From Schaalia meyeri (GTDB lineage Bacteria; Actinomycetota; Actinomycetes; Actinomycetales; Actinomycetaceae), in NCBI RefSeq assembly GCF_900105015.1, contig NZ_FNLK01000012.1, positions 1 to 32,000 of the forward strand: 32,000 bases of DNA, in the 5' to 3' direction. The notes beneath the pieces are model-generated. The model worked only from the letters and a program-made list of their open reading frames with translations. It searched no databases and was not told the origin of the DNA. The position numbers were made by a program, and so were the translations under genes. This document shows positions 28,268 through 30,762 of this stretch, piece after piece (the first letter of the stretch is position 1; every line of letters begins with the position of its first letter).

Positions 28268-29467
28268 GTGTCCGCATCCTCCGTCCTCGTCATTAACTCT
28301 GGTTCTTCCTCCATCAAGTACCAGCTCGTCGACCCCGAAACGGGTGACGCTATCGCCAAGGGCATCGTCGAGCGCATCGGCGACGCTATGGGTCTCATCA
28401 AGCACGTCCACGGCGATGCCGTGACCGAGGAAGAGATTCCCGTGCCCGACCACACCGTCGGCATGCGTGAGGTCCTGCGCCTCTTCGACACGGAGGGCCC
28501 GACCCTGGCCGAGGCGGGCATCGTCGCCGTCGGCCACCGCATCGTTCAGGGCGGCCGCTACTTCGATGGCCCGGCGCTGATCACCGACGAGGTTCGTGAC
28601 CTGATCGAGCAGCTGTGCCCGCTGGCGCCCCTGCACAATCCGGCCCACCTCAAGGGCATCGACGTGGCGCGCAAGCTCATGCCCGACGTCCCGCACGTCG
28701 CCGTCTTCGACACCGCGTTCTTCCAGGGATTGCCCGACAAGTCCGCGCTGTACGCCCTCGAGTCCGAGACCGCCGAAAAGTATTCGGTGCGCCGCTACGG
28801 CGCCCACGGCACCTCCCACCAGTTCGTGTCCCAGGAAGTCTCTCGGATGCTGGGGCGGACAGACCTCAAGCAGATCGTCATGCACCTGGGCAACGGCGCC
28901 TCCGTTTCTGCCGTGAAGGGCGGCCGACCGATCGACACGTCCATGGGTTTGACCCCTCTCGAGGGCCTCATGATGGGGACCCGCACGGGCGACATTGACC
29001 CGGCCGCGGTGTTCCACCTGCAGCGCGTCGCCGGCATGAGCGTCGACGAGGTTGACACCCTGTTTAACAAGAAGTCCGGCTTCAAGGGTATGACCGGTGA
29101 ATCCGACATGCGCAGCGTGCGGGCGATGATCCGCAACGACGACGATCCCGTGGCCCAGAAGCGCGCTCGTACCGCGATGGACGTCTACGTTAACCGTCTG
29201 CTGAAGTACGTGGGTTCCTACACGGCCGAGCTGGGCGGCCTGGACGCCATCACCTTCACGGCCGGCATTGGCGAGAACGACGCTGAAATTCGCCGCGAAC
29301 TGGCCGAGGCGCTCGCCCCCTTCGGCGTCAAGATCGACGGTGAGGCGAACAAGGTTCACAGCGGTGATCCGCGTGTCATCTCGACGCCGGATTCCTCGGT
29401 GACGCTGATCGTCTTCCCGACCAACGAGGAGCTGGCGATCGCCCGTCAGGCGCTCACTTTCGCCTGA
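28268..29467 (+). CDS. ackA: Acetate kinase
   Basis: 399 aa. VLVINSGSSSIKYQL, VGHRIVQGG, LAPLHNPA, HLGNGASV and FTAGIGEN are classic AckA motifs. Confidence 0.95.
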   Translation: MSASSVLVINSGSSSIKYQLVDPETGDAIAKGIVERIGDAMGLIKHVHGDAVTEEEIPVPDHTVGMREVLRLFDTEGPTLAEAGIVAVGHRIVQGGRYFDGPALITDEVRDLIEQLCPLAPLHNPAHLKGIDVARKLMPDVPHVAVFDTAFFQGLPDKSALYALESETAEKYSVRRYGAHGTSHQFVSQEVSRMLGRTDLKQIVMHLGNGASVSAVKGGRPIDTSMGLTPLEGLMMGTRTGDIDPAAVFHLQRVAGMSVDEVDTLFNKKSGFKGMTGESDMRSVRAMIRNDDDPVAQKRARTAMDVYVNRLLKYVGSYTAELGGLDAITFTAGIGENDAEIRRELAEALAPFGVKIDGEANKVHSGDPRVISTPDSSVTLIVFPTNEELAIARQALTFA

Positions 29468-29525
29468 TTGTTCCAGTGCCCGGGCCCGGGGTTCCCGCGT
29501 GGAGCCCCGGGCCCGGCGCGTATCC
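29427..29525 (+). repeat. Left copy (99 nt) of a direct repeat: last 38 nt of the ackA coding sequence, its stop codon and 58 nt downstream including the ackA terminator
   Basis: Aligned base by base to 30665-30762. Differences are one substitution (G 29452 vs C 30690, synonymous GCG/GCC Ala) and one G indel. Confidence 0.92.
29478..29517 (+). terminator. ackA terminator hairpin (lies inside the repeat; duplicated at 30716-30754)
   Basis: GCCCGGGCCCGGGGTTCC / GGAGCCCCGGGCCCGGC with a 5-nt loop, one bulge and one mismatch, 11 nt after the ackA stop. Confidence 0.55.
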
Positions 29526-29610
29526 CGCGTCTGCATTGACTATCTGATCGGGCAGGAGTACGGTCGGTACCGGTAACGGCGAGCAAGTCCTCGCAGAGTG
29601 CCAATCCGCG

Positions 29611-29642
29611 GACCCACGCGCGCACATGTTGCGGCGTGGGTC
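29611..29642 (+). other. Hairpin upstream of DUF3800-like copy 1
   Basis: GACCCACGC (29611-29619) pairs with GCGTGGGTC (29634-29642), extendable by CGCA/TGCG with one bulge. Followed by TTTGCGTCTATCT, then AGGAGG and ATG 29670. The same stem and CGTCTATCT box precede copy 2. Confidence 0.4.
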
Positions 29643-29669
29643 TTTGCGTCTATCTCAGTGAGGAGGAGC

Positions 29670-30625
29670 ATGCTCATCGCCTACATTGACGAGGTCGGAG
29701 AGGCCGGCGCATTCGTTTCAAAGGACCACAGGAGATTCAAGATGTCCCCGGTCTTTGGCTATGCGGGTTTCGTCGTTCCAGAACAGTATGTCCATGCCTT
29801 GTCTCGCGATGTTGCGACAACCAAACAGCGATTCCACTCACTCCTTTGCAGAGAAGGACAGGGCATAGAAGGCACATACACCCCTACATGGGAACGCAAG
29901 GGGTCCGATCTGCTGAGCAAACATGCAATGGGACGCGCAGGTCGGCAGGAAGTGATTGAGCTCTGCTCACTCCTTGCGAGGATATCAAGCAAGTATGGCG
30001 GTAAGCTCTTCTACTTCGTCCGAGAAAAACCTATCGGCTCGCCCGGACAGGTGTGGGGGCGAGACACTGGGCACAGCTGGGAAGCCAAGAGGGAAGAAAG
30101 AACTCTTGAGTGCCTCAGCGAGGCAATCAACCGACTCTGCACGTATGCCGAGCACGAGGATCAAAACATCCTACTCTTTCAGGATATGTGGTCAACGAAA
30201 ATGAACGCTACCAGCAAGTTCGACGCAGCTACGCCCACATCTACAGTCGTATCAGAGCACACCAGGAGATGCGTCGTATCCTCGAAGCCCCTGCATATAT
30301 CGACTCAGAACTCTCCACGAACATCCAGTGCGCTGATTGGATCGCGGCCCTCATAGGCCGCGCATGCGATTACCAGCTGATTCGTAACAGCTCCTACAAA
30401 TGGGTGGCGGAGATCTTTTTCAGTTATCTTCGCGGCGATTTCACATACGAATCAACACTCCACTTTCATATGCGCAGTATCGATAACATCCACAACAGCA
30501 AGATTCTCGATAGAGCTAGGCCCCTTTTCGACACACTCACTGGCATGTCTCCCGAGAATCTGCAGCGCCTCCAACTGGTGCACGCTCGCGCGAGTGCTCC
30601 CAGCCAGATTAGACCGTCATCCTGA
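29670..30625 (+). pseudogene. DUF3800-like gene, split over two frames (-1 shift near 30185-30200)
   Basis: Frame 1 (ATG 29670, RBS AGGAGG) reads MLIAYIDEVGEAGAFVS... to ...HEDQNILLFQD. Frame 2 (ORF 30110..30625) carries the C-terminal hallmark AYIDSELSTNIQCADWIAALIGR. Together they give about 318 aa with the N-terminal (I/Y)xDExG and C-terminal DS..s..iQxAD pattern I associate with DUF3800. Confidence 0.65.
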
Positions 30626-30664
30626 GCAACAGATGACATTTCCCGGCACACAGAGGCTCTCGCC

Positions 30665-30762
30665 AGGAGCTGGCGATCGCCCGTCAGGCCCTCACTTTCG
30701 CCTGATTGTTCCAGTGCCCGGGCCCGGGGTTCCCGCGTGGAGCCCCGGCCCGGCGCGTATCC
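30665..30762 (+). repeat. Right copy (98 nt) of the direct repeat, immediately upstream of cobB
   Basis: See the left copy. Ends 30 nt before the cobB ATG. Confidence 0.92.

Follow-up and report, generated by a model that had tools for sequence, protein, structure and literature searches.

The low-GC islet between ackA and cobB in the 32,000-nt stretch of Schaalia meyeri DNA analyzed here (the window) is a compact accessory module, made up of an inferred promoter, a structured RNA of ~85 nt, a ribosome-binding site and a DUF3800 gene that is inactivated in this copy. The module lies at the 3' end of ackA, a site that has long been a hot spot of insertion in Schaalia/Pauljensenia, and within the species it is a real presence/absence polymorphism, neither an artefact nor a fixed duplication. 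The features on which this rests are as follows.

28268 to 29467, plus strand: ackA (acetate kinase), whose 3' end is the duplicated target (open reading frame; Pfam Acetate_kinase, E 3.3e-144)
29427 to 29525, plus strand: left repeat copy, attL-like, with the last 38 nt of ackA, its stop and the terminator hairpin (repeat search, alignment)
29536 to 29564, plus strand: inferred promoter-like site TTGACT-17 nt-TACGGT at the left edge of the cassette (read from the sequence)
29569 to 29655, plus strand: structured leader RNA with closing stem, hairpin P1, conserved junction and GC-rich terminator-like hairpin P2 (covariance model)
29670 to 30625, plus strand: DUF3800 pseudogene, RNase H-like fold (Pfam DUF3800 in both halves)
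30665 to 30762, plus strand: right repeat copy, attR-like, with a dead ackA tail and terminator (repeat search, alignment)
30793 to 31548, plus strand: SIR2/cobB deacetylase gene, right flank of the insertion site (Pfam SIR2, E 1.8e-46)
31718 to 32000, minus strand: remnant of a second, paralogous DUF3800 cassette (open reading frames; leader RNA by covariance model)

An earlier note on this DNA had described direct repeats of 99 and 98 nt that duplicate the 3' end and terminator of ackA, and repeat search with pairwise alignment bore this out. The copies differ by one substitution (G at 29451 versus C at 30689) and one G indel in the 3' arm of the hairpin, and they flank an islet of ~1.1 kb with a GC content of 0.50–0.57, compared with 0.65–0.72 outside. 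As ackA ends at 29467, the left copy includes its last 38 coding nt, the TGA stop and 58 nt beyond, the latter with a 16-bp hairpin (29480–29516). A perfect palindrome, GGCGATCGCC, lies in the 5' part of the repeat (29434–29443 in the left copy), and the right copy ends 30 nt upstream of the SIR2/cobB start. The upstream copy leaves ackA whole, and the downstream copy is a dead remnant that retains the original junction with cobB. For the enclosed DNA, the note had listed one DUF3800-like gene and no integrase or transposase. The latter part stands, as neither was found among the islet's open reading frames or its Pfam matches, where DUF3800 is the only family; the former was too sparse, since a promoter-like site and a structured RNA accompany the gene, and the gene itself is broken. 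What had been taken for a 144-nt spacer upstream of the gene instead holds the conserved RNA element.

The covariance model of the leader RNA matched the islet at 45.5 bits (E 5.5e-8). Compensatory changes were seen in 15 of 18 pairs, 91.6% of cells were paired versus 81.3% in shuffles (none of 500 shuffles was as high), and the folding energy is -40.9 kcal/mol (z -2.95). This ~85-nt structure is kept across genera, and in every locus tested, plasmid copies included, it precedes DUF3800. A TTGAC-type -35 box and a TAnnnT -10 box are also conserved in related cassettes, with a spacer of varying length; a consensus promoter scanner does not call the promoter-like site at 29536–29564. Searches of Rfam 15 with the window and 12 related leaders (at the gathering threshold in 11 loci, and at E values up to 1–10 on the leaders) matched no family. 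The RNA combines structure with covariation and a position beside DUF3800 genes, the features that define DUF3800-associated RNA motifs, and it is either a further motif of this kind or one that was never deposited in Rfam. A role as a programmable guide was considered and rejected: in 9 of 10 cassettes, the RNA is no more complementary to the target than shuffled sequence is, and it hardly varies from one target to the next.

The DUF3800 gene (ATG at 29670) is split into two frames by a 2-nt TG duplication at 30187–30188, with frame A spanning 29670–30356 and frame B continuing to the stop at 30625. Its two halves score 23.4 and 24.2 bits against Pfam DUF3800 (PF12686; gathering cut-off 21) and carry the N-terminal DE and C-terminal QxxD motifs, which place this broken gene in the family. 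An intact allele (P0001, 317 aa) is 98% identical, and the same 228-aa truncated product was seen in three independent further samples. Acidic motifs are conserved (D7, E8, D172, E176, D211, Q219, D222), with D7, E8, Q219 and D222 invariant in the alignment. The AlphaFold model is confident (pLDDT 86.9); a Foldseek search of it against the PDB returned nothing significant and no transposase or integrase fold, and the best meaningful match was a weak one to RNase HII (probability 0.72, E 0.1). PADLOC gave no match, and the PHROGs match was only to a family of unknown function. The literature assigns DUF3800 an RNase H-like fold and connects it with non-coding RNAs, retrons and CRISPR accessory genes (PMC5737381, PMC10910872, PMC7736814, PMC13594972). 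Among the ackA-tail lineages, the gene has a dN/dS of 0.06–0.17, indicating purifying selection. For the same lineage pair, synonymous divergence is ~1.5 in DUF3800, above that in SIR2 (0.61) and ackA (0.47), so strict vertical descent is not established. A functional link of the cassette to ackA or SIR2 was rejected, as homologues outside the genus lie near neither gene.

The earlier note had proposed that sites with a single repeat copy between ackA and cobB might be found in related genomes. Exactly such empty sites are present in conspecific loci (L002, L003, L172, L178, L179), on contigs that encode identical AckA or SIR2 proteins and that include a second complete genome. The conspecific site L174 is filled with an intact gene, and the frameshift allele of the window recurs in three further samples. 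It is the co-occurrence of empty, intact and identically frameshifted sites in one species that establishes the polymorphism. The note had named two findings that would overturn its reading, an arrangement fixed in all relatives and an assembly artefact, and neither materialized. Beyond possibility in principle, nothing speaks for such an artefact or for an ancient fixed duplication without polymorphism, whose probability we put at virtually nil: the repeat-bounded arrangement is present in dozens of metagenome assemblies made independently, as well as in this complete genome, and the conspecific empty sites extend to the second complete genome. This alternative is already refuted.

Conspecific alleles also bear on how the repeats behave. 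The right copy in the window is identical to the single copy of the conspecific empty sites, and the GGG variant of the repeat remains linked to the left end of the cassette. A divergent block is carried by the left copy of L174 and by the right copies of L007 and L008, such that the repeat copies are sequence mosaics. A clean Campbell signature in the repeat polymorphisms first looked consistent with the data; as conspecific alleles then proved to be patchy mosaics, this signature is not decisive.

Lineages whose AckA proteins are only 73–90% identical also carry this cassette at the ackA tail, with unchanged boundaries. Considering this spread and the purifying selection on the gene, the cassette is not a recent integration. 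The attL/attR-like signature described in the note was upheld as structural behavior, with one copy at empty sites. The note had further suggested a search for the same cassette at other loci, and none was found: in 54 of 54 metagenome contigs the type-1 leader follows ackA directly, and this cassette type was found solely at the ackA tail, across several Schaalia/Pauljensenia lineages. Repeats at the ackA locus are 67–135 nt long. The site also holds decayed copies, tandem copies (L127, L130) and arrays with a second cassette; in L033, L142, L163 and L136, a cassette X, which encodes a kinase-like protein and lacks DUF3800, is accompanied by a 370-nt ackA copy and bounded by copies of the ackA tail. 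Downstream of cobB, the remnant cassette of the window retains ~75 N-terminal codons of a P0065-type DUF3800 and a leader RNA that begins at 31958 and is cut by the window end (covariance match at 13691–13766 of the source-genome locus L001, minus strand, equivalent to window 31958–32033). Related strains carry an intact version of the P0065 type at this same site.

Homologous RNA and DUF3800 cassettes elsewhere in Actinobacteria are bounded by repeats of 26–282 nt. Flanking repeats of at least 25 nt were found at 8 of 44 DUF3800 loci of other genera versus 2 of 176 control positions, and 8 of the 13 repeat pairs in 680 kb enclose a DUF3800 gene, in loci that were all chosen for carrying DUF3800. 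Among the loci examined in detail, the repeats copy the 3' end of a neighboring gene or tRNA (L050, L073, L082, L095-97/L105, L099, L103; L061, L074, L091 and L101 are left out of these calls), and the targets of the cassettes comprise a tRNA (L050), a transglutaminase-like gene (L073, L082, L103), fumarase (L099), ackA and cobB. Insertions are found at 3' ends and terminators and may run with or against the target, the repeat length varies widely over sites (26–543 nt), and the right repeat begins 0–40 nt after the stop codon in independent cases. The inserted unit is precise, a single module of 1.05–1.2 kb that recurs at unrelated targets. Random capture or decay would hardly be expected to give boundaries this tight, which hint at a dedicated mechanism. 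A comparison of twelve repeat-bounded cassettes showed no conserved termini and no inverted repeats, and a comparison of insertion sites showed no common core sequence. Any microhomology at the junctions would be absorbed into the repeat. Other small repeat-bounded cassettes cluster beside DUF3800 cassettes (L101, L078), in a sample biased by the choice of loci for DUF3800; DUF3800 or an unseen factor could promote insertion there. Another cassette without DUF3800, made up of a HEPN and winged-helix pair, also lies between repeats of this kind.

Among the enzymes with an RNase H fold are transposases, RuvC-type recombinases and the guide-RNA nucleases of IS elements. DUF3800, possibly with its RNA, might insert the cassette at gene 3' ends itself, either through widely spaced staggered cuts that would leave long target duplications or as a homing-type nuclease that copies it into empty alleles. 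The earlier note had listed a role of DUF3800 in its own mobility as speculative. The enrichment of repeats at DUF3800 loci, the compact and precisely bounded unit, the conserved acidic motifs and the tightly co-evolving RNA that accompanies the gene would all suit such self-mobilization. We nevertheless consider it very unlikely, as the element has no conserved ends or inverted repeats, the RNA pairs with its varied targets only at chance level and hardly changes between them, and the fold search gave only the weak RNase HII match. In addition, the kinase-like and HEPN cassettes have the same kind of repeat without DUF3800, the type-1 cassette has stayed at one site over a genus-level time span, and the copy in the window has kept its repeats despite being a pseudogene.

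The wide range of repeat lengths, the insertion at 3' ends and terminators in either orientation, and the lack of a recombinase and of defined ends would also fit one-off accidents of replication or repair, in which a template switch at the terminator hairpin or the fill-in of a staggered break left a horizontally acquired gene that is now immobile and decaying. This is quite unlikely, since one gene family shows this architecture repeatedly across many genera and arrays have formed at the same sites, which indicates more than isolated accidents, and since gene and RNA are under strong constraint. On the origin of the duplication, it overlaps with the explanation that we prefer, and the two are inseparable by sequence data alone.

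No recombinase was found among the sampled open reading frames of the window (10 in 1–18 kb and those around the islet), among the called genes of L001, which runs 7.5 kb beyond the window, or in any array; no integrase was found at ~250 loci, and no integrase-bearing element lay between ackA and cobB in ~130 Schaalia loci. A phage or plasmid vector was considered and rejected: the ackA tail and type-1 leader are absent from IMG/VR viral contigs, of which only one carries this DUF3800 subfamily. Gordonia and Rhodococcus plasmids do carry homologues of 37–39% identity together with the same RNA. Judged against the classes of mobile DNA, the islet has the target-duplicating repeats and single-copy empty sites of a site-specific element, and the loci searched held neither an internal integrase nor an integrase-bearing relative on the same att site. 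It lacks the conserved ends of an insertion sequence or transposon, its repeats vary, and DUF3800 is its only Pfam match. In place of an integron cassette's recurring site, what is repeated here is the tail of the host gene itself, which differs per site, and no integrase gene flanks it. As in a minimal mobile element, the ackA–cobB interval is variously empty or filled with DUF3800, decayed copies, or cassette X plus DUF3800, with no mobility genes.

These results bear on whether the islet is a minimal remnant or satellite with true attL and attR sites, mobilized in trans by a tyrosine or serine integrase of an ICE, prophage or AICE, as in a cis-mobilizable element (CIME, as defined in the review PMC5704250). 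A duplicated gene or tRNA 3' end that is present just once at empty sites is the hallmark of such elements, the palindrome in the repeat is in keeping with it, and the tandem accretion with target-tail copies (L033, L101, L163) mirrors the accretion of CIMEs and IMEs (PMC5704250) and tycheposon arrays (10.1101/2020.12.28.424599). The tandem junctions in L127 and L130 are explained equally well by unequal homologous crossover. A decayed element mobilized in trans, which the earlier note had offered first among its options, is weakened by the lack of an integrase-bearing relative at the ackA tail in the ~130 Schaalia loci and of the ackA tail in IMG/VR viral contigs. One and the same tight promoter-RNA-ORF unit would not be expected to survive random decay at a tRNA, a transglutaminase-like gene, fumarase, ackA and cobB, the sites share no core sequence, and the cassette is as old as genus-level lineages. 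We consider this origin unlikely.

We favor, at somewhat better than even probability, an old accessory module, probably defence- or toxin-antitoxin-like, that is gained and lost, and whose repeats are homogenized, through homologous recombination. Spread by homologous recombination through the ackA tail was among the options in the earlier note and fits best of these, given the alternative contents of the site and its mosaic repeats. Host homologous recombination could account for the empty, intact, frameshifted, truncated, tandem and multi-cassette states: a crossover between the two repeats would yield precise loss or tandem duplication of the cassette, and recombination with DNA of other strains would allow re-acquisition through flank or repeat homology and homogenize the repeats. 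The first duplication could have come from Campbell-type entry of a circle that contained part of the target, or from a template switch or staggered break by which the target was copied again. Homologous recombination explains how the cassette is kept, lost and spread at one site, but not the de novo duplications of 26–543 nt at many genes. A broader reading, which we regard as distinctly unlikely, is that RNA and DUF3800 modules form an unrecognized class of recombinase-free or self-mobilizing cassettes, which would insert at gene and tRNA 3' ends with long, variable duplications (26–543 nt) that spare the target and would seed hot spots for arrays of other small defence or toxin-antitoxin cassettes with target-tail copies between them, the protein and RNA acting in insertion or homing-type maintenance.

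From its architecture and the literature, the module is probably a selfish or defence-type RNA-protein pair, which would explain its persistence under purifying selection with frequent decay. DUF3800 and the many RNAs that partner it have lacked an explanation since 2017, and the cassette gives this open question an anchor: in Actinobacteria, RNA and gene form one promoter-RNA-terminator-ORF unit that is under purifying selection, yet often lost or broken. Should a dedicated mechanism lie behind the layout, small defence-type cassettes would have a new route into genomes, where they could accumulate without integrases or transposases; if only homologous recombination at hot spots is at work, the locus is still a natural system open to testing. 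One oral species offers alleles that are empty, intact or frameshifted, with two complete genomes (CP066065.1, filled, and CP012072.1, empty) among them, which allows direct study of DUF3800 and RNA function.

Among known systems, CIME-type elements are exemplified by the streptococcal ICESt1/St3 elements at fda. The islet resembles CIMEs and tycheposons (10.1101/2020.12.28.424599) in its target 3'-end repeats, single-copy empty sites, lack of an internal integrase and accretion with partial target copies. It differs from them in that no related integrase-bearing element is found at the ackA site and no core sequence is common to the sites, the cassette is a precise 1.05–1.2-kb module at unrelated targets instead of a random remnant, and its repeats are long (67–135 nt at ackA, up to 282–543 nt elsewhere). 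ToxIN is a type III toxin-antitoxin system, and the order of promoter, structured RNA, terminator-like hairpin and nuclease-family gene, in small, patchy and often pseudogenized units, is similar to that type; the likeness is one of gene order alone. The RNA here is a single copy versus a tandem repeat, and the protein has an RNase H fold versus a ToxN/AbiQ-type endoribonuclease. Free-standing homing endonuclease genes, as at atp6 in Allomyces fungal mitochondria, bring a replacement 3' end for their target and leave the resident end dead. The succession of live gene tail, selfish ORF of nuclease fold and dead gene tail is shared with these, whereas the repeat copies are usually near-identical within a genome and not of donor versus resident type, the mosaics being ambiguous on this point.

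The RNA motifs DUF3800-I to DUF3800-XI (Weinberg et al. 2017, PMC5737381) likewise pair a conserved structured RNA with an adjacent DUF3800 gene, followed by a terminator-like hairpin, although no Rfam 15 family matches the actinobacterial RNA, whether at the gathering threshold or at relaxed ones. The minimal mobile elements of Neisseria are alternative cassettes between conserved genes that are exchanged by transformation and homologous recombination (PMC3082526, PMC1538595). Like these, the ackA/cobB pair holds alternative contents without mobility genes, and its mosaics, in repeats and flanks, point to recombination between strains. Unlike these, the cassette is bounded by a duplication of its target, which adds loop-out deletion and tandem duplication to the ways in which the site can change.

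The islet between ackA and cobB (whose product is SIR2) consists of a leader RNA and a DUF3800 gene, and its features are laid out in the window as follows.

28268-29467, ackA (Pfam Acetate_kinase)
29427-29525, left repeat copy, 99 nt: the last 38 coding nt of ackA, the TGA stop and 58 nt
29480-29516, 16-bp hairpin within the 58 nt after the ackA stop, left repeat copy
29536-29564, promoter-like site TTGACT-17-TACGGT, inferred from conservation and not called by a consensus scanner
29569-29655, leader RNA element, ~85 nt, conserved far above the coding sequence
29670-30625, DUF3800 pseudogene (Pfam), ATG at 29670; N-terminal part in one frame (29670-30356), C-terminal part in another
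30665-30762, right repeat copy, 98 nt: a dead ackA tail, separated from cobB by 30 nt
30793-31548, SIR2/cobB gene (Pfam profile search)
31718-32000, continuing to about 32033 in the source-genome locus L001, minus strand, remnant of a second DUF3800 cassette: leader RNA and ~75 codons

An earlier note had described a repeat-bounded islet of low GC, and this description was accurate: the repeat pair, the ackA tail and the drop in GC (0.50-0.57 between the copies vs 0.65-0.72 outside) were all reproduced. The two copies lie in direct orientation and are identical but for a single substitution and a G indel. Both carry a perfect 10-nt palindrome, GGCGATCGCC, in their 5' part (29434-29443 and 30672-30681), within the ackA coding tail. 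Comparison with intact 317-aa alleles places the break in the DUF3800 reading frame at a 2-nt TG duplication (30187-30188), and as three independent SRA sequencing runs/assemblies encode the same 228-aa truncated product, the frameshift is a real circulating allele. Where intact, the gene is functional, judging by a dN/dS of 0.06-0.17 among Schaalia lineages. DUF3800 proteins are described as having an RNase H-like fold, with links to type VII retrons and to genes accessory to Cas12a2/a3 and Cas13 (PMC10910872, PMC7736814, PMC13594972, 10.64898/2026.08.25.746378). The predicted structure was confident (pLDDT 86.9); a PDB search with this model gave no significant neighbour, the best meaningful match being RNase HII (probability 0.72). 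PADLOC has no model for DUF3800, and its PHROGs match is solely a function-unknown family.

The 144 nt from the left repeat to the ATG are not a spacer, as they hold the promoter-like site and the conserved RNA element. Upstream regions (150 nt) of ~75 homologous genes, drawn from many actinobacterial genera, have a common architecture: a short closing stem (GG..CC), a hairpin P1 whose loop is often UGAAACAG, a junction conserved as GAGCGCCAAUUCGAGAA and a GC-rich hairpin P2 of 11-12 bp, after which comes UUCUGCGUU. Of the 18 pairs that RNAalifold predicted for 36 leader sequences, 15 show compensatory changes. In this alignment 91.6% of cells are paired vs 81.3% in shuffles (0/500 shuffles reach 91.6%), and pairing falls to 35-50% once partners are slid; the predicted folding energy of the window's own leader is -40.9 kcal/mol (z -2.95). 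When the alignment was turned into a covariance model, all further loci tested had the element immediately 5' of DUF3800, including two plasmid copies and both source-genome cassettes. Rfam 15 holds no family matching it. Weinberg et al. reported eleven unrelated motifs for DUF3800-associated RNAs, several of which have terminators, without proposing a function (PMC5737381); the leader adds another motif of this kind or is one absent from Rfam.

The ackA site is polymorphic within the species. The source of the window is CP066065.1. Two contigs encoding the identical AckA protein (L002, L003) read ackA, 88 nt, cobB, with a single repeat copy, and are thus empty. Among contigs encoding the identical SIR2 protein, the site is empty in a second complete genome, CP012072.1, which we take to be Actinomyces/Schaalia meyeri W712, and in further contigs. 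L174 has a filled site, where the DUF3800 gene is intact. Over the whole repeat, the window's right copy matches exactly the empty-site sequence of three contigs (L172, L178, L179), and the left copy departs from this allele at the two polymorphic positions. The earlier note would have given way had all relatives been filled or the arrangement been an artefact; empty sites exist beside a filled one, and an artefact is excluded.

Beyond the species, many Schaalia/Pauljensenia lineages carry the cassette of this type (type 1) between ackA and SIR2, its DUF3800 identity being 98%, 78-84% and 61-62% where AckA identity is 100%, 86-90% and 73%, respectively. Most of these lineages have it flanked by their own ackA tail (67-105 nt); around the cassettes of the most divergent ones (L030/L031, L041/L042, L043) no repeat was detectable. 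The cassette ends are homologous from lineage to lineage, and the simplest reading is one old insertion. For the same lineage pair, synonymous divergence is about 1.5 in DUF3800, above that of SIR2 (0.61) and ackA (0.47). The earlier note had proposed looking for the same cassette at other loci. In a scan of metagenome contigs, the type-1 leader was found in 54, directly after ackA wherever context exists, and no type-1 cassette was seen at any other locus.

Other states of the ackA site include cassettes that are truncated or reduced to the leader, additional frameshifts, and IS insertions into the cassette in L038 (4725-5972, at the leader; Pfam Mutator-family transposase) and L146 (584-1921; a 445-aa ORF). 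Tandem duplications are present in L127 (two leaders, spacing 1234 nt) and L130 (a 1.8-kb unit repeated). A second low-GC cassette, X (GC 0.44; L033 4029-5489, L142 1025-2319, L163 9437-10722, L136 1-571), encodes a kinase-like product of 402-409 aa with a weak protein-kinase match. It is followed by an ackA 3'-end copy of 300-370 nt in L033, L142 and L163; in L136, where X is represented by its last 571 nt alone, the ackA 3' coding sequence that follows is at least 309 nt long. The order of X and the DUF3800 cassette varies among contigs; in L033 it is ackA, tail, X, ackA' (312 nt plus tail), DUF3800 cassette, tail, SIR2, as would be expected from a single crossover of a circle carrying X and a target fragment, homologous or site-specific alike. 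None of the ackA-site arrays contains an integrase. In a variant cassette (L135, L149, L163, L146, L127, L130, L114, L123), the first ~270 DUF3800 codons are replaced by ~1.3 kb without a convincing ORF, and the leader RNA and last ~45 codons are retained. In a related species (L010 7080-7400; also L011-L019, L160, L162), an extra ~330-nt insert with 19-nt tandem repeats (ATAACCTATCCGGATGCCC) breaks the right repeat before cobB; after it, the 3' part of the terminator appears in a third partial copy.

cobB thus has DUF3800 cassettes of two types, one per side. The DUF3800 of the downstream remnant is a paralogue, 41% identical to the first. Related strains carry this second type intact at the same position, its remnant also occurs in strains with an empty ackA site, and in a more distant Pauljensenia lineage it lies within 131-135-nt repeats duplicating the cobB 3' end. 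Beside it in L001 (13859-14758, past the window's right end) is a 299-aa gene with no Pfam match, NAD-kinase-like by eye, with NAD-related neighbours (SIR2, NrtR-like NUDIX, NadE).

Outside the genus, no homologue in a sample of 80 loci (one genome per species) lies near ackA or SIR2. Direct repeats of 25 nt or more flank 8/44 DUF3800 loci vs 2/176 control positions, and 8 of the 13 repeat pairs meeting the criteria in 680 kb enclose a DUF3800 gene. In the detailed cases L050, L073, L082, L095-97/L105, L099 and L103 (L061, L074, L091 and L101 being left out of this set), the repeat takes in the neighbour's 3' end. Targets include a tRNA with its terminator (L050, repeat 77-80 nt) and the class-I fumarase gene of Buchananella (repeat 282 nt). 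The 3' end of a transglutaminase-like gene adjoins DUF3800 cassettes and is their target in L073 and L082 (Rathayibacter) and in L103 and L085 (Microcella and an uncultured Microbacteriaceae bacterium). The cassette is co-directional with this gene in Rathayibacter and convergent in Microcella, and both orientations at orthologous 3' ends suggest that insertions occurred independently at this gene end. Cassettes measure 1.05-1.2 kb, with the right repeat beginning 0-40 nt past the stop codon, and those of different sites have no terminal sequences in common. Some neighbouring repeat pairs contain other small cassettes; in L101 (5709-9146), three copies of a 40-48-nt repeat lie between and around a DUF3800 cassette and a HEPN/winged-helix cassette, the latter looking like a toxin-antitoxin pair. 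Plasmids pGCWB2 (Gordonia, L166) and pdjl-6-4 (Rhodococcus, L167) carry homologues (37-39% identity) preceded by this same RNA, so actinobacterial plasmids are a possible route between hosts for RNA and DUF3800.

The cassette thus shows target duplication, presence/absence polymorphism, tandem and array states, and mosaic repeat sequences, and has no recombinase and no defined ends. Homologous recombination is the probable driver of cassette loss and re-acquisition, of tandem duplication and of homogenisation between repeats. That DUF3800 and its RNA take part in a dedicated insertion mechanism appears improbable to us. Leader-target complementarity was at chance level, which speaks against the leader as an RNA guide. 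Evidence also speaks against a viral carrier: the ackA tail and leader are absent from IMG/VR, and this DUF3800 subfamily is on one viral contig only. Among known systems, the cassette failed membership tests as an IS element and as an integron cassette. It resembles cis-mobilizable elements (CIMEs; PMC5704250) in its attL/attR-like bounds with no integrase inside, and failed that membership test because no related integrase element was found. Its arrangement works like that of minimal mobile elements, and by analogy its gene order may be likened to that of type III toxin-antitoxin systems.
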